Below are positions 5,265 through 36,512 of a stretch of 64,000 nt of DNA, in pieces. The translations under genes were made by a program, and so were the position numbers. The stretch comes from Sulfolobales archaeon (GTDB lineage: Archaea > Thermoproteota > Thermoprotei_A > Sulfolobales > NBVN01), in assembly GCA_038831135.1 (NCBI GenBank), contig JAWBKW010000001.1, forward strand, positions 5,614-69,613. Reading direction: 5' to 3'. Under the pieces are notes generated by a model. It was not told where the DNA came from. It was given only the letters and a program-made list of their open reading frames with translations, and did not search any database. The stretch's first letter is position 1; each line of letters begins with the position of its first letter.

Positions 5265-5373
5265 GGGGCCGTAGTCTAGCTTGGCTAGGATGCCAGCCTG
5301 GGGAGGAATCCCCACCGGACCGCTGGTAGGGCATACCTCAGTAAGGTCCCGGGTTCAAATCCCGGCGGCCCCA
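5265..5373 (+). tRNA. tRNA-Pro (GGG) with two introns
   Basis: Acceptor GGGGCCG/CGGCCCC plus discriminator A. T arm CCGGG-TTCAAAT-CCCGG. Anticodon stem CCAGC/GCTGG with loop CTGGGG..C and anticodon at 5300-5302. The gene is 109 nt, about 34 nt too long. A 17-nt insert at 5304-5320 follows position 37. A second ~17-nt insert lies within 5327-5348, in the variable-loop region. No encoded CCA. Confidence 0.85.
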
Positions 5374-5546: not shown

Positions 5547-5635
5547 GTAATCACACCAACTTACTTTAGTAACATTAATTAAATAAGTGAGCTACATGAG
5601 TTATCCTTAATTCAATTCTCTTGAGCCGGAGTTAA

Positions 5636-16560: not shown

Positions 16561-18684
16561 TTAGTCTATCCAATCCCTTACCTCAAGTTTTTTAGGTATA
16601 TATTCATCCATTAAGAACTTAAGTCCTTTACTAGTGAGCGCCTCTATCTCTAATTTTGCTCCCTTATTCATGAATATGTCGATCTCGTTTTTCCATCTAG
16701 GTGTTTGGAACCATCTATAGTTTATTAGTTCTTTAGCTCTCTTTATGTCCCTATCCTTGGCTTTAATTATGTAGTTCCTTCTCTCAGACTCTGAGAGATA
16801 GGGACTCTTCTTGATGTTGGGACTTCCGAAAATATCTGAAGGCATTACACCTAGAAACCTAAGGCCAGGGGTAGCTAGCCTCTCACTCTCATACGATAGT
16901 GTTATAGAACCTATTTTGAAGACGCTGTAGATATACCATCCGTAAGGGTCGCTATTATGGTATATTACCCCGTAAGAACCTATGAAGGAATTACATTCTG
17001 GTACCATGAAATCATATACGTAACCAGTATAGTCCTCCTCCAAAATATCTATTACCTCAGCGAACGTTACATGGGTTGAAGGAATTTCCGTCAAATTAAG
17101 GCGTTTAATTGATGGGAGGCTTATCTTAATTAAATCCTTATATTCATCAACACCATATGGTAGTATACTTAATGAGAGTAAGATGTTAAATATTTGCTTA
17201 GCCCTAACTCTATCCTCTACGATAAGTACAGGGACCCCATCTTCATAACTTAAACATCCATAATTTTCAAATATTTTTTTAAGGAAGTCTACAGCACCCT
17301 CATCATACTTATATAGATTTACGTAATCACCCCTTAACACGTTACTTGCACTTGACGAAGTACTTACATCACTATATTGTAAGTATGTTTTACGGTCTAA
17401 AGCTTGTTTATTATAGCTAGATACCTCTATAGCTAACTTAGATACGCTTTCGGTTAGATATTCACCATCATCAACGTCTTGGTTAGTCAAGAAGTTAGGG
17501 GCTACCGCTAATGTTGGAATTTTCTCTATTGCAGTACTTGTCCTTAATATAGGTGGTAAATTCGAAGCAACTAATATATGATCACCTGGTCTTAGGCTCC
17601 GCGCCGGTAAGACAGCTATAACCCCATCCCTTAAGACGAAGAGAGAGTGACCTCCTGTGACTTTAACTGTTCCTCTATTATTAGTTCTTATCGATAATAC
17701 CTTATCATTTATCCAGTGTCTGTAGGCGTAACCTATCTTCCTCCACTCAATGTTTCCTGATATAGGGTCCCATGCAGGAACTTCTAGGTCTATGAAGATC
17801 CTCTCTTTCTCGCTGTTGCTAAAGTAATGACCTATTAATTCCTCCACAGGACCTACTCTAACTATGTCATTCTTTGGATCCTTAATTATTACAACTTCAT
17901 CTGCTGGTATGCTATCGGTTATTATGTAGGTTGGGAGGTTCAACTCATCACTTAATCTTCTAACGAATCTTCTGGTGGCTCTATCAGGTTGACCTGCACT
18001 AGTTATTAGAAGCGTTTTATACTTTCTCCAAAATCCTGCTCTATGGAGTTGTTGGAACACAGCATCTTTCTCGACGATTAATACATATTCAGCGTCTACG
18101 TCTAGGAATTCTATGAGGTCAGGTGTAGGCTCTATTGAGTAGGCCCCATGCCCCATCTTACTTAGGTCTATGACGTCATCTCCAGATCTTATCCTCATAT
18201 TACCAACGATCTTGCCCTTCTCCTTACTCAGTATTAGTAGCTCCTCCCTAAGGAGATTTATAAACACTTCAATGTCTCTAATAATTCCGTCGGATTCTTT
18301 CTGTTCATCCCACGTATTCTCGTTCTCGATTTTATTGCTAGCTGTGCGGTATCTTATGGTATGCTTACCTCTATAGAATAGGTCACGGATTGTTGGGTAC
18401 TCATTATTAATTAACGACTCATATATTATTCTGGCCATAACTACGGTTTGCATAAATTTCTTAGCTTCCCTAATATCTAAGAATGTTCTACTTAATGTTT
18501 CAGGACCTAATAGTAGGAGTTTCCTCTCTTCATCGTAAATCGTATTACTTAACGTCCTCTTCGGAAGTATTATAGTAGGACTCTCACCTTTAATGATCTG
18601 TTTAACAAGCTCCCTGAACTTCTCAACCATAACACTTACTGCTTTATCTCTTGCCCTTCTATCAACTGAAGAAATTAATTGCAT
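16561..18684 (-). CDS. top6A: DNA topoisomerase VI subunit A (Spo11 homolog), intein-containing precursor
   Basis: 707 aa. Catalytic Tyr motif TIRDLFYRG. Toprim region VLIVEKDAVFQQL...LLITSAGQPDRATRRFV...YIITD/SDPYGWYIYS is interrupted by a 320-aa insert. The extein totals 387 aa, normal for Top6A. It lies directly downstream of top6B. Confidence 0.9.
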   Translation of the reverse strand: MQLISSVDRRARDKAVSVMVEKFRELVKQIIKGESPTIILPKRTLSNTIYDEERKLLLLGPETLSRTFLDIREAKKFMQTVVMARIIYESLINNEYPTIRDLFYRGKHTIRYRTASNKIENENTWDEQKESDGIIRDIEVFINLLREELLILSKEKGKIVGNMRIRSGDDVIDLSKMGHGAYSIEPTPDLIEFLDVDAEYVLIVEKDAVFQQLHRAGFWRKYKTLLITSAGQPDRATRRFVRRLSDELNLPTYIITDSIPADEVVIIKDPKNDIVRVGPVEELIGHYFSNSEKERIFIDLEVPAWDPISGNIEWRKIGYAYRHWINDKVLSIRTNNRGTVKVTGGHSLFVLRDGVIAVLPARSLRPGDHILVASNLPPILRTSTAIEKIPTLAVAPNFLTNQDVDDGEYLTESVSKLAIEVSSYNKQALDRKTYLQYSDVSTSSSASNVLRGDYVNLYKYDEGAVDFLKKIFENYGCLSYEDGVPVLIVEDRVRAKQIFNILLSLSILPYGVDEYKDLIKISLPSIKRLNLTEIPSTHVTFAEVIDILEEDYTGYVYDFMVPECNSFIGSYGVIYHNSDPYGWYIYSVFKIGSITLSYESERLATPGLRFLGVMPSDIFGSPNIKKSPYLSESERRNYIIKAKDRDIKRAKELINYRWFQTPRWKNEIDIFMNKGAKLEIEALTSKGLKFLMDEYIPKKLEVRDWID
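16954..17913 (-). mobile_element. Intein (aa 258-577 of Top6A), Ser1 / Ser+1, in the Toprim DxD motif
   Basis: N-terminal splice block SIPADEVVIIKD. Block B is KVTGGHSLFVL (TxxH) and block F is YVYDFMVPECNSFIG. Block G is GVIYHN followed by S. Removing the insert joins YIITD to SDPYGW. The central region has only a degenerate LAGLIDADG-like motif (FLKKIFENYGCLSYEDG). Confidence 0.8.
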
Positions 18685-23342: not shown

Positions 23343-23549
23343 TTAAGTTGTTAGGATTTTACTGACTACTTCGGTAGGTAGGTCAGCGGCCCTAACGACC
23401 TTAGCTGTTTTAGGCGGTTTTTTAACACATACACGTAAAGGAACATATCTTGCTGGGTTATCCTCAGCTTTGCTCTTGAGAACTCTAACCTTAATATATT
23501 TATCCTTACCTATCTCAATGTATAGATATTTTTCTTTCTTTAGGCCCAT
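23343..23549 (-). CDS. Hypothetical small basic protein (68 aa)
   Basis: ORF only. Lys/Arg-rich with no recognised motif. Confidence 0.35.
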   Translation of the reverse strand: MGLKKEKYLYIEIGKDKYIKVRVLKSKAEDNPARYVPLRVCVKKPPKTAKVVRAADLPTEVVSKILTT

Positions 23550-23630
23550 AATCCCAACCTACTAACTTAGTCTTCTTCAGCTTTAAAAGTATTTTATCTT
23601 TTTAATGATTAACTATGTGGTTGGTGGTGA

Positions 23631-27406: not shown

Positions 27407-28174
27407 TCAAACCTTAAGAAACCTCATAAATACTATGTACCCAGTGTGCCCTACCATTCTCGACTTAGGTCTAACAGCATCCTTCTTAACTTCGTATTCC
27501 CTAAGCATAAGCTCACATACTTTAATATCTATGAATAACTTAGTGTTTGAAGCATACGTAACTAATTTTTCGACCTGATTAATAGTTGGTAGGAATGAGA
27601 GTAGAGTTGCCGACGGCTTTAAAGCATTAACTAATTTATTGAGGGCATTCCATGGGTCCGGTATATCTAGTATAGCAGAATCTATGTTGGTGTCATCTAC
27701 TTCATTCCTTATATCCTTATTTCTGAAGGTAACTCTATCATCTAATCCAATAAGCTTTAAGTTCCTGTACGCCACCTCTATATAATCCTTGTTCAACTCA
27801 TAAGCATAAACATGTCCGTCATCACCTACGTACTTCGCTAATATAGCAGTCATGAATCCGGTTCCAACACCCCCCTCAATAACTCTAGAGCCTGGACCGA
27901 TATCAGATAGTAGTAACATCAACCCTAAGTCTTTAGGATAAATAACTTGTGTAACCCTCTTAAACCCCTTCATCATGTAGTCTAATAAGGTAGGTCTCAG
28001 TAGGTAAGCATTAACACTAGTACTTAACTTAATGGAATCACCGTAATTCATACCAACTATATTATCAACCTTAATCAGGCCCTTATCAGTCGATAATTCC
28101 TTGCCTTTAATAACTTTAACCAGCTTAGACCTCCTCTCATCTATATGTATTAATACATGAGAATCGTAATTGAT
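27407..28174 (-). CDS. trmI: tRNA (adenine-N1)-methyltransferase TrmI (Trm61/GCD14 family); start codon non-canonical or unresolved
   Basis: MTase core QVIYPKDLGLMLLLSDIGPGSRVIEGGVGTGFMT. The track ORF starts at the ATG at 28051. However, 57 further in-frame codons up to the stop at 28223-28225 encode the conserved TrmI N-terminal beta domain (DSHVLIHIDERRSKLVKVIKGKELSTDKGLIKVDNIVG). They contain no ATG, GTG or TTG. An ATC start at 28174 would give 255 aa, the usual TrmI size. Confidence 0.75.
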   Translation of the reverse strand: MNYDSHVLIHIDERRSKLVKVIKGKELSTDKGLIKVDNIVGMNYGDSIKLSTSVNAYLLRPTLLDYMMKGFKRVTQVIYPKDLGLMLLLSDIGPGSRVIEGGVGTGFMTAILAKYVGDDGHVYAYELNKDYIEVAYRNLKLIGLDDRVTFRNKDIRNEVDDTNIDSAILDIPDPWNALNKLVNALKPSATLLSFLPTINQVEKLVTYASNTKLFIDIKVCELMLREYEVKKDAVRPKSRMVGHTGYIVFMRFLKV

Positions 28175-28263
28175 GGCTCGGTTCTGATGTCTTACATCAT
28201 CACTCAGAAATACCAGCCCTCCTCACAGCCCTACACATGCCTGAAATTCATTATTTATTCAGG

Positions 28264-28710: not shown

Positions 28711-29967
28711 GTGGCTCTCCTGACAGATTTTAAGTCTATTAGGGATGATTTCCCTCTACTTAAGTCTAGGAAGGTGGTTTACTTCGATAATGCTGCAACG
28801 TCACTTAAACCTATTCAAGTTATAGATGCTGTAAGAAACTATTACGAGTGTTTAGCTAGTAATGTACATAGAGGGGTTCATAGACTTTCTATGGAATCTA
28901 GTAGATTGTATGAGGATGCTCACGAGGAGGTCCGAAAGTTCATTAATGCCAGGTACTTAGATGAGATAGTATTTACTAGCGGTACTACTCAATCGTTAAA
29001 TCTAGTAGCATACATGCTTGGGCTATCACTAAGTAGAGGAGATAATGTTGTGGTGTCTATCATGGAACATCATAGCAACTTACTTCCTTGGGTCACTCTC
29101 TCCAAGGTTAGAGGCTTCGGGTTAAAGGTTGTAAATATTAGAAACGATTATACGTTAGATTATGATGAGTTATCAAATCTAGTTGATCGTAGCACCAAGG
29201 TTATCTCAATAACCCATACTAGCAACGTATTAGGAACCATAGTTGATATTAAGAGGGTTTCGAAGATAGCTCGTGAGGTTGGTGCTTTTTTAGTGGTTGA
29301 TGGTGCTCAGAGCGTTCCCCACATACCTATCTCGGTAACCGATCTAGATGTTGATTTCTTAGCCTTCAGCGGTCATAAGATGCTAGGACCTACAGGTATT
29401 GGGGTGTTATATATTAGGAAGGAACTTCAGGAGTCTTTAAACCCCCCATTCACTGGCGGTGGTATCGTAGATAGTGTTAGGTATGAGAACGGTGAGTTCT
29501 CTATTAAGTTATTAGATATGCCTTGGAGATTTGAACCTGGAACGCCGGACATAGCTGGAGCAATAGGTCTAGCAGAGGCAGTCAGATACTTAAGGAGGTT
29601 AGGTATGGATAATGTTGCTATGCATGAGAAGGAATTATTGAGATATGCGCTAAGTAAACTAAGTAATGATGAAGTAATATCTGAGAAAATAATTATTTAC
29701 GGCCCCAGTAATTTAGAATTTAGAGGAGGCATTATATCCTTCAATATTGCAGACTCCAACCCGCACATAATCGCATCCTACCTTGATACCTACAATATAG
29801 CTGTAAGAAGCGGTCAGCACTGCGCTCACCCGCTCCATCAACGCATCGGTGCTAATTCAGGTACAGTAAGGGCAAGCCTCTACATATATAATACTGAGGA
29901 AGAGGTCAACACAATGATAGAGATCCTCAGAGATTACATCATTAAGTTTACACCTAAAAATAAGTAA
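28711..29967 (+). CDS. sufS: Cysteine desulfurase, SufS/CsdA-like class V aminotransferase
   Basis: 418 aa with a GTG start. PLP-lysine context FSGHKMLGPTGIG and catalytic Cys context RSGQHCAHPL. Confidence 0.85.
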   Translation: MALLTDFKSIRDDFPLLKSRKVVYFDNAATSLKPIQVIDAVRNYYECLASNVHRGVHRLSMESSRLYEDAHEEVRKFINARYLDEIVFTSGTTQSLNLVAYMLGLSLSRGDNVVVSIMEHHSNLLPWVTLSKVRGFGLKVVNIRNDYTLDYDELSNLVDRSTKVISITHTSNVLGTIVDIKRVSKIAREVGAFLVVDGAQSVPHIPISVTDLDVDFLAFSGHKMLGPTGIGVLYIRKELQESLNPPFTGGGIVDSVRYENGEFSIKLLDMPWRFEPGTPDIAGAIGLAEAVRYLRRLGMDNVAMHEKELLRYALSKLSNDEVISEKIIIYGPSNLEFRGGIISFNIADSNPHIIASYLDTYNIAVRSGQHCAHPLHQRIGANSGTVRASLYIYNTEEEVNTMIEILRDYIIKFTPKNK

Positions 29968-32096: not shown

Positions 32097-32192
32097 GCCG
32101 CCGTAGCTCAGCCTGGGAGAGCGCCCGTTGAGCGGTAGGCTCAGGCGAAGCTGAAGACCGGGATGTCGGGGGTTCAAGTCCCCCCGGCGGCA
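32097..32192 (+). tRNA. tRNA-Phe (GAA) with a 22-nt intron inside the anticodon stem (between positions 30 and 31)
   Basis: Acceptor GCCGCCG/CGGCGGC plus A. D arm GCTC-AGCCTGGGA-GAGC. T arm GGGGG-TTCAAGT-CCCCC. Removing 32128-32149 (TTGAGCGGTAGGCTCAGGCGAA) gives anticodon arm CCCGG-CTGAAGA-CCGGG, with the anticodon at 32153-32155. Confidence 0.85.
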
Positions 32193-32458
32193 CTACCTCT
32201 CTTCCTAACTAATGCAAACGTAGAGCCTCGAACATCAACTACTTCACCATTAACCATATTCGCTACCTCATGAGCTACTGAATCAATATCTACGTTATTT
32301 AAAGTTTTGAACGACTTCATAACCCTAATTTTAACTACTCCCTCCCTCTTAAGGTGGTTCTTAATATCATTTAGTACGTTTTCGTTTATCCCTCCCTTAC
32401 CTATGTATATATGTGGCTTACCAATTACTGCCCTCACTACTTTCCTACTTTTCTGCAT
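32174..32458 (-). CDS. YhbY/CRS1 (CRM-domain) RNA-binding protein
   Basis: 94 aa. GKPHIYIGKGGINENVLNDIKNHLKREGVVKIRV matches the YhbY pattern (iGk.Gvt..vi..i...L..hELiKvk). The last 19 nt are antisense to the tRNA-Phe 3' end. Confidence 0.7.
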   Translation of the reverse strand: MQKSRKVVRAVIGKPHIYIGKGGINENVLNDIKNHLKREGVVKIRVMKSFKTLNNVDIDSVAHEVANMVNGEVVDVRGSTFALVRKRGSAAGGT

Positions 32459-32754
32459 TGTAACCTACTCACCCAACCACATAGTAAACAAGTTTTAGAA
32501 ATTATAACGTATTTACGTACCCCTCTTATCCTATATCTTGCAGTTAAGCCTGGTATGAGAGGGATGAAACATTTACTACATACGCCTCTTTTTAAGTATC
32601 TAGGCATCCTAACATCTGCTTTATTAATAATCCTTAAGGCTAATTCTATATATCTCCTAGCTCTCTCAATATTACCTGACTTGGTGGCTAGTAATGCCTC
32701 AGAATATAGGATCTTAGCTCTCTCAAGCGCTATTTCCTTAACTTGATTTTTAAT
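32437..32754 (-). CDS. rnp4: RNase P protein component 4 (Rpp21/Rpr2); not in the ORF track, no canonical start codon
   Basis: A 105-codon open frame is bounded by TAG (32764-32766) and TAG (32437-32439). It encodes IKNQVKEIALERAKILYSEALLATKSGNIERARRYIELALRIINKADVRMPRYLKRGVCSKCFIPLIPGLTARYRIRGVRKYVIISKTCLLCGWVSRLQC. This is the Rpp21 helical N-domain plus a CxxC...CxxC zinc ribbon. The only ATG is codon 50. I take the ATT at 32754 as a provisional start. Confidence 0.8.
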   Translation of the reverse strand: MKNQVKEIALERAKILYSEALLATKSGNIERARRYIELALRIINKADVRMPRYLKRGVCSKCFIPLIPGLTARYRIRGVRKYVIISKTCLLCGWVSRLQCRKVGK

Positions 32755-32761
32755 CCTGAAT

Positions 32762-32777
32762 CCCTAAATATTTAGGG
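32762..32777. promoter_or_regulatory. 16-bp perfect palindrome CCCTAAATATTTAGGG (bidirectional TATA-like element) between rnp4 and nep1
   Basis: Read directly. It occupies most of the 28-bp divergent gap. Its promoter role is inferred only from the AT-rich TAAATATTTA core. Confidence 0.35.
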
Positions 32778-32782
32778 TAGTA

Positions 32783-33516: not shown

Positions 33517-33615
33517 TGGTGCCGCGGCCGGGATTTGAACCCGGGTCACGGGCTATCCCTGCAGGAGTTAAGTCTCGAGAGGCCCGCATACTTGACCGGG
33601 CTATACTACCGCGGC
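33517..33615 (-). tRNA. tRNA-Glu (CTC) with a 21-nt canonical (37/38) intron and an encoded CCA
   Basis: The reverse complement reads GCCGCGG-TA-GTATAGCCCGGTCAAGTAT-G-CGGGC-CTCTCG[AGACTTAACTCCTGCAGGGAT]A-GCCCG-TGAC-CCGGG-TTCAAAT-CCCGG-CCGCGGC-A-CCA. Confidence 0.85.
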
Positions 33616-35687: not shown

Positions 35688-36149
35688 ATGGTCGATGTTA
35701 GGGAAGTACCGGCTGATGCCTTCATTAAACACCTAGCTAACTATCTAAAAAGTAACGTACCTTCATTAAAGCCACCTAATTGGGCCTTATATGTTAAGAC
35801 TGGACATTTTAAGACTGGGGTTCCTGAAAATCCAGATTGGTGGTACTTCAGGGCAGCAAGTATTTTAAGGAAGCTCTACATAAATGGGACCCCTGTAGGT
35901 GTTGGTGCTTTTCGAGTCATGTATGGCGGGCTTAAGCGTAGGGGTTCCGCACCTCCACATTTTAAGGAAGCAGCCGCCTCAAATATTAGACACATACTTC
36001 AGCAGTTAGAGGCGGCTGGCTATGTTGCTAGGGTACGTGGTAAGGGGAGGGTTTTAACTCCAAAAGGTATGTCTTTACTTGCACGTATAGCTAATGAAGT
36101 GTTTCAGGAGTCAGTTAAGTTAATACCTGGGCTAGCAAAGTATAGTTAG
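35688..36149 (+). CDS. rps19e: 30S ribosomal protein S19e
   Basis: 153 aa. PDWWYFRAASILRKLY and GGLKRRGSAPPHF are S19e hallmarks. AGGTG lies upstream of the ATG. Confidence 0.9.
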   Translation: MVDVREVPADAFIKHLANYLKSNVPSLKPPNWALYVKTGHFKTGVPENPDWWYFRAASILRKLYINGTPVGVGAFRVMYGGLKRRGSAPPHFKEAAASNIRHILQQLEAAGYVARVRGKGRVLTPKGMSLLARIANEVFQESVKLIPGLAKYS

Positions 36150-36156
36150 AGGTGAT
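36149..36156 (+). promoter_or_regulatory. Shine-Dalgarno GAGGTGAT, 5 nt upstream of the ATT codon at 36162
   Basis: The same 8-mer precedes the EF-1alpha ATG (50550-50557). It overlaps the rps19e stop codon. Confidence 0.6.
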
Positions 36157-36161
36157 TTAGG

Positions 36162-36512
36162 ATTAGTGACTATTATGATGAAGAGTTAGAAGAGCTTAAG
36201 AGGCGGCGTCTAGCCGAAATGATGCGGAGGTCTGAGGGAGCTAGGGAAAGAGAGGAGGAGTTAGCTAGGGAACTCCAAAAACAAGAGGTTTTGAGGAGGG
36301 TTTTAACTCCTGAAGCTCGTGAAAGATTAGCTAATATTAAGTTAGTTAAGCCCGAACTTGCTAAGTCTCTAGAAGACTATTTAGTAAGTCTCACGTTGAG
36401 TGGTCGTTTAAATAAGGTTATTGATGATGAGGAACTAAAGGAAATATTAAGGCAGATCGATGAGAGGAGTAGGAGAGATGTTAGAATAACTGTTAGGAGG
36501 AAAGGGGGCTGA
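36162..36512 (+). CDS. PDCD5/TFAR19-like double-stranded DNA-binding protein; probable ATT start
   Basis: The track ORF starts at the ATG at 36219. The frame is open from the TGA at 36153-36155 and encodes ISDYYDEELEELKRRRLAEMMRR, the conserved acidic N-terminal helix of this family. The ATT at 36162 is the only near-cognate codon behind the SD. Position between rps19e and rpl39e matches the conserved archaeal gene order. Confidence 0.75.
   Translation: MSDYYDEELEELKRRRLAEMMRRSEGAREREEELARELQKQEVLRRVLTPEARERLANIKLVKPELAKSLEDYLVSLTLSGRLNKVIDDEELKEILRQIDERSRRDVRITVRRKGG

Follow-up and report, generated by a model that had tools for sequence, protein, structure and literature searches.

A probable AUU start codon behind a Shine-Dalgarno motif in the PDCD5-like gene of a Sulfolobales archaeon, and its conservation among relatives

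Where does translation begin on a conserved gene whose reading frame holds no ATG, GTG or TTG ahead of its conserved N-terminus? The question is raised by the PDCD5/TFAR19-like gene in a 64,000-nucleotide (nt) stretch of DNA (the window; positions 5,614 to 69,613 of contig JAWBKW010000001.1, assembly GCA_038831135.1). The organism is labelled 'Sulfolobales archaeon' in GenBank, as a metagenome-assembled genome (MAG); an initial annotation made from the letters of the window had guessed Thermoproteales, which was wrong. The window and GenBank MAG GCA_038863035.1 belong to one species, 2 mismatches having been counted over 20,351 bases. Comparison of the start region with that of related lineages makes it probable that PDCD5 translation begins at the AUU at 36162 (Table 1).

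The PDCD5 start region and its conservation

The stop codon TAG of rpS19e adjoins the Shine-Dalgarno (SD) motif of the PDCD5 gene, and the junction reads TAT AGT TAG (S19e end), AGGTGAT TTAGG ATT AGT GAC TAT TAT GAT GAA GAG. After an in-frame TGA at 36153 the PDCD5 frame continues with TTT, AGG and ATT, then AGT. Between this TGA and the first in-frame ATG at 36219 no in-frame ATG, GTG or TTG was found, and 19 codons (SDYYDEELEELKRRRLAE) run from the ATT to that ATG. The positions given in the initial annotation for the SD, the TGA, the ATT and the first canonical start all agreed with direct reading, as did its length of 116 amino acids (aa) for a product initiated at AUU, from ATT 36162 to the stop at 36510-36512. 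The gene order S19e-PDCD5-L39e-L31e-eIF6-L18Ae-prefoldin was kept across all relatives. On contig L097 (ERZ1742239, 1.6 kb, coverage 1.9x), PDCD5 is followed by unrelated small open reading frames (ORFs), including a HicB-like antitoxin, and not by L39e/L31e; either the genes have been rearranged in this lineage or the low-coverage contig is chimeric.

By homology, the gene is a bona fide member of the PDCD5/TFAR19 family, with a product predicted to bind DNA. Pfam PF01984 (dsDNA_bind) matched residues 12-114 over the whole profile (1-106 of 106; E = 1.3e-26, 93.3 bits against a cut-off of 26), and SSO0352 of S. solfataricus (PDB 6IQC, 118 aa) aligned to residues 3-115 (E = 1.8e-29); with the domain beginning at residue 12 and the SSO0352 alignment at residue 3, homology extends upstream of the ATG at 36219. 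Other solved homologues were human PDCD5 (2K6B, E = 1.1e-15) and MTH1615 (1EIJ, E = 7e-14). SSO0352 (PDB 6IQC/6IQO) resembles the window protein in family and length (118 versus 116 aa), and its N-terminal acidic helix YDDEELEEL aligns with residues 3-11. The two differ in that SSO0352, along with most orthologues, starts at a canonical codon, and identity in the aligned region is about 55-60%.

A PDCD5 codon alignment was built from six lineages, and codon rates were calculated with the Nei-Gojobori method. The ratio of non-synonymous to synonymous rates (dN/dS) was 0.06-0.22 in the 19-codon extension, where dS was >0.8 and near or past saturation, and a comparable 0.02-0.09 in the rest of the gene. 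Between lineages A (the window) and B, the extension carried 7 synonymous and 4 non-synonymous differences, and a canonical start was present in neither. Judged by these rates, the extension is real coding sequence under purifying selection; the initial annotation had allowed that these 57 nt might evolve neutrally in relatives, and at the dN/dS obtained they do not.

The PDCD5 start region was compared in nine lineages, A to I (Table 2), for which eIF6 identities gave the grouping ((((A,B),(C,D)),E),(G,F)),I, with H nearest G. The aligned start position holds ATT in seven lineages, ATG in one (D) and GTG in one (I), and corresponds to Met in more distant orthologues (e.g. P0016 and P0017). 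The alignment of orthologues that the initial annotation had suggested as a check showed the ATT and the 19 codons that follow to be conserved. In A, B and G the frame is closed by a stop 3-5 codons ahead of the ATT, no canonical start lies between, and the GTG within the SD is out of frame; given the 5-nt spacer and the upstream stop, ATT is the sole option in these three lineages.

The length of the spacer carries the argument to the remaining lineages. Five nucleotides lie between the SD and the start position in A, B and G, and four in C, D, E, F and H; on the eIF6 tree this difference means two independent 1-nt insertions. A 1-nt indel between a true start codon and the body of its gene would be lethal to the protein. 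Since the ORF has stayed intact and constrained across these indels, the spacer is untranslated, and the start would therefore lie at the ATT/ATG/GTG position throughout the clade. When the two triplets separating the SD GTG from the ATT are read as codons, the amino acids they give are unconserved (VE, VT, IN, IK).

The SD motif itself was also assessed. The window holds 7 copies of the 8-mer GAGGTGAT where 1.66 would be expected, and 1 of 100 shuffles reached this count. The same 8-mer precedes the EF-1alpha ATG (50561) with a 3-nt spacer, as the initial annotation had stated, and the L10/P0 ATG (41111) with a 6-nt spacer. Most starts inside operons of the window, whether ATG, GTG or TTG, have a GGTG core 5-8 nt ahead of them, and the distance of 7 nt from GGTG to the PDCD5 ATT falls within this range. 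The anti-SD at the 3' end of archaeal 16S rRNA is expected to read ...AUCACCUC, as known from other archaea. The PDCD5 SD and spacer match the arrangement in the leader of the P. abyssi aEF1A mRNA, GGAGGUGAU-UUAA-AUG with a 4-nt spacer, which has been called a strong SD (PMC6237735).

Table 1. Window coordinates of the features discussed
Feature	Position	Strand	Basis or remark
rpS19e (upstream cistron)	35688..36149	+	Pfam PF01090, E = 8.8e-52; stop TAG 36147-36149
SD motif GAGGTGAT	36149..36156	+	Read directly; enriched in window
GTG within SD	36152-36154	+	Off the PDCD5 frame; meets TAG 36158-36160 after two codons
In-frame TGA closing the PDCD5 frame, three codons before ATT	36153..36155	+	Direct reading
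Spacer TTAGG, 5 nt, SD to start codon, untranslated	36157..36161	+	Length variation among lineages
ATT (AUU), putative initiation codon	36162..36164	+	Sole near-cognate codon kept after the upstream stop
First canonical ATG, probably internal Met (codon 20)	36219..36221	+	No GGTG upstream
PDCD5/TFAR19-like coding sequence, 116 aa from ATT	36162..36512	+	Stop 36510-36512; PF01984
rnp4 open frame	32440..32763	-	Pfam PF04032 (Rpr2), E = 3.8e-15, residues 15-96
rnp4 candidate start ATT	32754-32752	-	Aligned conservation
trmI (tRNA m1A methyltransferase) open frame	27407..28222	-	Pfam GCD14, E = 4.2e-31, from residue 73
C/D-box small RNA (sRNA)-like element over the 5' end of the trmI frame	28176..28230	-	Rfam sR44, box anatomy

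Table 2. SD motif, spacer and codon at the aligned PDCD5 start position in nine lineages
Lineage	Source	SD	Spacer	Start position
A	Window	GAGGTGAT	TTAGG	ATT
B	L015	GAGGTGGT	TTAAG	ATT
G	L095	GGGGTGAT	TAAAG	ATT
C	L009/L028	GAGGTGGT	TGAA	ATT
E	L003-8	GGGGTGAT	AAAC	ATT
F	L011/12	GGGTGGT	TACG	ATT
H	L097	GAGGTGAT	TAAA	ATT
D	L010/L016	GAGGTGGT	GGAG	ATG
I (outgroup)	L098			GTG AGT GAT

Taken together, homology, purifying selection, codon conservation, spacer indels and independent assemblies (see below) support the core claim of the initial annotation, that PDCD5 initiates at AUU behind an SD. Under this reading, PDCD5 would be translated as the second cistron of a conserved ribosomal-protein operon. 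The 30S subunit would be placed by the 8-nt SD (GAGGUGAU), fully complementary to the archaeal 16S 3' end and overlapping the S19e stop codon, with the AUU 5 nt downstream. Initiator Met-tRNA would then decode AUU with two of three bases paired and a mismatch at the third position. The predicted product is 116 aa long with the N-terminus Met-Ser-Asp-Tyr-Tyr, and its start peptide would be (M)SDYYDEELEELK. The long SD duplex, probably with termination-reinitiation coupling to S19e, may offset the weak codon, which in turn may keep PDCD5 output below that of the ribosomal proteins of the same mRNA. More speculatively, PDCD5 expression could depend on the level or occupancy of archaeal initiation factor 1 (aIF1).

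Several points weigh against initiation at AUU. All of the support for it comes from sequence comparison. Lineages C, E, F and H have an in-frame SD GTG that could in principle be the start. The invariance of the third base of the ATT is modest evidence, as the internal ATA in 'RIT' is equally invariant (Ile codon usage was ATA 0.48, ATT 0.35 and ATC 0.17); this statistic was dropped as weak, some internal Ile codons being equally invariant. The complementarity of the SD to the 16S 3' end was judged from other archaea. Lastly, aIF1 selects against AUU in extracts of S. solfataricus (Hasenohrl et al. 2009, cited from the summaries in PMC4705826 and PMC6237735), and a low efficiency of initiation is therefore to be expected.

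Alternative explanations and existing annotation

A start at the ATG at 36219 would yield a 97-aa protein and would turn the upstream 19 codons into a decaying former N-terminus. Prodigal-type callers do choose this codon (P0004), and most lineages keep a Met at the following codon, but the 19 codons evolve at dN/dS 0.06-0.2 with dS saturated, the comparison of A with B included, and both the Pfam domain and the alignment with SSO0352 begin inside them. The ATG also has no GGTG upstream, and its column reads ATG, ATG, ATT, ATT, TTG and TTG in the six lineages, so that four of the six lack ATG; we regard this start as very unlikely. The initial annotation had raised the possibility of a base-call error (ATT for ATG), and a superfluous T in the TTT run was considered alongside it as another base-call or assembly error. 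The rarity of ATT starts speaks for such an error, and nothing else does. The PDCD5 DNA was identical in two separately built GenBank assemblies (L001, L002), the 116-aa protein (P0001, 100% identical) was found on seven contigs under at least 4 GenBank accessions and a 97-aa call (P0004) on five further Logan contigs, and ATT recurs in six other lineages, which were sampled at different springs by different studies. With independent identical assemblies and other lineages agreeing, an error of this kind was excluded for practical purposes, and its probability is negligible.

Two further alternatives concern how ribosomes would reach the frame. The AUU could be used mainly by termination-reinitiation from the S19e TAG, with restart 13 nt downstream under relaxed stringency and with de novo SD-directed 30S binding playing a minor part. 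The S19e stop overlaps or adjoins the SD in every lineage, with an overlapping GTGA in L003, as such coupling would have it; set against this, the second ATT gene, rnp4, has no upstream cistron on its strand, and the PDCD5 SD is as strong as that of EF-1alpha. Reinitiation as the principal route is judged unlikely, and it is a variant of initiation at AUU, not a contradiction of it. Far less probable, to the point of being barely credible, is a start at the SD GTG (36152) followed by an RF2-like programmed +1 frameshift at ATT-T/AG. Lineages A and B read GTG-NTT-TAR, a codon ending in TT and then a stop, which resembles known +1 sites. Lineage G has no such site (GTG ATT AAA GAT TAG), the GTG lacks an SD of its own, and the codons from GTG to ATT are the unconserved ones noted above. 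With no shift site conserved beyond A and B, programmed frameshifting was rejected.

Existing records of the gene divide between these starts. The NCBI Prokaryotic Genome Annotation Pipeline (PGAP) starts PDCD5 exactly at the ATT in GCA_038863035.1 and GCA_038887955.1, and among 47 PGAP calls inspected this was the sole non-canonical start. The GenBank entries (MEM0453421.1 and others, 'MAG: DNA-binding protein [Sulfolobales archaeon]', 116 aa) give an identical protein with an identical ATT start coordinate. The PGAP call differs from the present analysis in being homology-driven and automatic, without supporting analysis, and it does not cover the relatives. The 97-aa call (P0004) is without the conserved N-terminal helix, and calls in the relatives start at the SD GTG or at a downstream ATG: in A, B and G the callers fall back on the downstream ATG (P0004, P0007, P0009), while a 4-nt spacer puts the SD GTG in frame and the callers start there ('VINIS', 'MVEIS', 'MVTIS').

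More generally, the GTG of a GGTG core is often taken as the start by gene callers where a 6-nt spacing puts it in frame. Examples were L003, L009, L011 and L097 (PDCD5), L095 at 1671 (rnp4), and the window at 28711 and 2915. Such calls may systematically add three spurious N-terminal residues where GGTG is the SD.

The closest bacterial likeness is to infC (IF3) and to E. coli pcnB, in which AUU behind a functional SD is the sole start of a conserved housekeeping gene. The effect proposed for the weak codon, of lower output and sensitivity to a fidelity factor (IF3 in bacteria, aIF1 in archaea), is likewise that of infC (PMC4705826). The differences are that initiation here is archaeal (aIF1, aIF1A, aIF2) and that the PDCD5 case is known from its sequence. 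An autoregulatory start of the infC type was considered and rejected: the product is PDCD5-like and not aIF1/SUI1, and no autoregulatory loop is implied. Among archaeal genes, the Asgard tubulin AtubA also has a rare ATT start proposed for it. The deposited protein is truncated, and an upstream ATT restores the conserved N-terminus with a ribosome-binding site at a plausible distance (PMC13394414). That proposal draws on a single sequence and structure prediction, whereas the PDCD5 ATT is found across seven lineages with indel and dN/dS evidence.

The rnp4 and trmI genes and other features of the window

The initial annotation had claimed that rnp4 (RNase P Rpp21/Rpr2) and trmI also lack canonical starts, and both absences held on re-examination, over 52 and 57 codons. 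It had further proposed a lineage habit of initiation at Ile codons. This gained partial support, from rnp4, in which ATT is the sole conserved candidate, and none from trmI, in which an Ile codon could not be fixed as the start.

In rnp4, the first ATG is codon 53. The sequence ATT AAA AA(T/A) is common to six lineages, five of which have an in-frame TAG three codons before it; in A-D no canonical start lies nearby, and ATT is the sole conserved candidate in these four. The ATT aligns with the initiator Met of orthologues (e.g. P0129, MRRIIKDLALQR), and the column of the window's first Met is not Met in C and D. The ratio of non-synonymous to synonymous differences per site (pN/pS) was ~0.2 both upstream and downstream of the first ATG, and the ATT is preceded at 6-9 nt by a G-rich run that resembles an SD (AGGGG; GGGTG in lineage G). 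Nucleotide conservation at this site is confounded, as ATTAAAAAT, read in reverse complement, could be a TATA box for the divergently oriented EMG1. Invariance of the ATT was dropped as independent evidence for this reason, and the case for rnp4 therefore rests on the upstream stop, coding constraint and alignment with the orthologues' Met.

The rnp4 protein of this species was absent from a collection of 5.8 billion proteins, and the calls in B, C and D are truncated (88, 89 and 66 aa). The gene is not annotated in GCA_038863035.1, where PGAP calls a 63-aa hypothetical ORF on the opposite strand (32555-32746, +) that is probably a shadow of rnp4. A palindrome, CCCTAAATATTTAGGG, lies at 32764-32782, midway in the gap of ~28 nt between rnp4 (ATT 32754) and EMG1/Nep1 (TTG 32783), and recurs at the equivalent place in L014-L019. 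It is too near either start for a standard -27 TATA box, and the promoters of rnp4 and EMG1 seem to lie inside the first codons of the opposite gene.

For trmI, the first canonical ATG is at 28051, and a conserved N-terminal domain lies upstream of it, with a weak TrmI-like_N match at residues 30-61; the PGAP call has 214 aa against a family norm of 250-270 aa. The first ~16 codons of the frame are covered by a putative C/D-box sRNA, which matched Rfam sR44 from end to end (22.1 bits, E = 0.0011), below the gathering score of 45. Its layout is box C UGAGGA, a 12-nt guide GGGCUGGUAUUU, box D' CUGA, box C', a second 12-nt guide and box D CCGA, closed by a GGC...GCC terminal stem, and the D' guide GGGCUGGUAUUU is invariant. 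All four boxes, like the terminal stem, are kept in >25 loci at 45-75% TrmI identity (besides the window, L014, L026-L042 and L051-L066). In-frame stops occur within the element in L062, L065 and L066, so that conservation there is at the RNA level. In loci whose TrmI frame passes through the element, box D reads CCGA and not CUGA/UUGA, a pattern that suggests dual constraint on RNA and protein. No targets of the sRNA guides were found in the window.

In distant lineages TrmI is called from a TTG within the guide or an ATG within box C'; the corresponding codon in the window clade is TTT or TTA. Neither start candidate in the window was established: ATC 28174 is ATA, GTA, TTA or ACC in relatives, and CTG 28207 is fixed by box D'. 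As far as the alignments go, the absence of a canonical start in trmI is confirmed and initiation at an Ile codon is not established.

All open frames were compared with relatives in search of conserved sequence ahead of their first canonical start, and over the ~29 kb that could be compared no further real gene without a canonical start was found besides PDCD5, rnp4 and trmI. One candidate, 23347-23562 (+), was rejected as a shadow frame opposite a minus-strand DUF5622 gene. A scan of the window and clade for GGTG followed after 5-8 nt by ATH or CTG, with no canonical alternative, returned PDCD5 as the only real gene; matches with a spacing of 6 nt necessarily share the frame of the SD GTG and were uninformative.

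Other features were noted in the window. The gene for topoisomerase VI subunit A (16561-18684, -; 707 aa) carries an intein, on the basis of the precomputed annotation of an identical Logan contig, in which a Pfam Intein_splicing match separates two TOP6A Toprim segments. Rfam gave tRNA genes of 96-109 nt at 5265-5373 (+), 32097-32192 (+) and 33517-33615 (-), all three probably intron-containing. ARAGORN missed the first two, neither of which looked like an initiator tRNA when read by eye, and called the third tRNA-Glu.

Biological meaning of an AUU start

To our knowledge, near-cognate initiation is barely documented in Archaea. In ribosome profiling of Haloferax volcanii, ~30% of candidate alternative initiation sites were set aside as near-cognate (PMC7261190). 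What is new here is the conservation across a clade and the second gene, the ATT start itself being already an automatic GenBank annotation. These two additions are useful for annotation and for the choice of a test case, and leave the concept unchanged. For annotation, the consequence is that callers truncate PDCD5 or start it at the SD GTG, miss rnp4 and truncate trmI, and the artefact of the SD-internal GTG may be common wherever GGTG is the SD core.

For the biology, the seven ATT lineages, the spacer indels and the second gene together indicate that a crenarchaeon can use AUU as a stable primary start. A wider idea is put forward tentatively, as possible though not probable: that AUU is a regular, selectively kept fourth start codon in this uncultured hot-spring Sulfolobales/Desulfurococcales clade. 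It would have persisted for tens of millions of years on particular housekeeping genes of low abundance (PDCD5, RNase P Rpp21 and perhaps TrmI), holding their output beneath that of the ribosomal proteins transcribed with them or tying it to the availability of aIF1. If true, this would represent a lineage-specific relaxation, or a regulatory use, of archaeal start-codon stringency.

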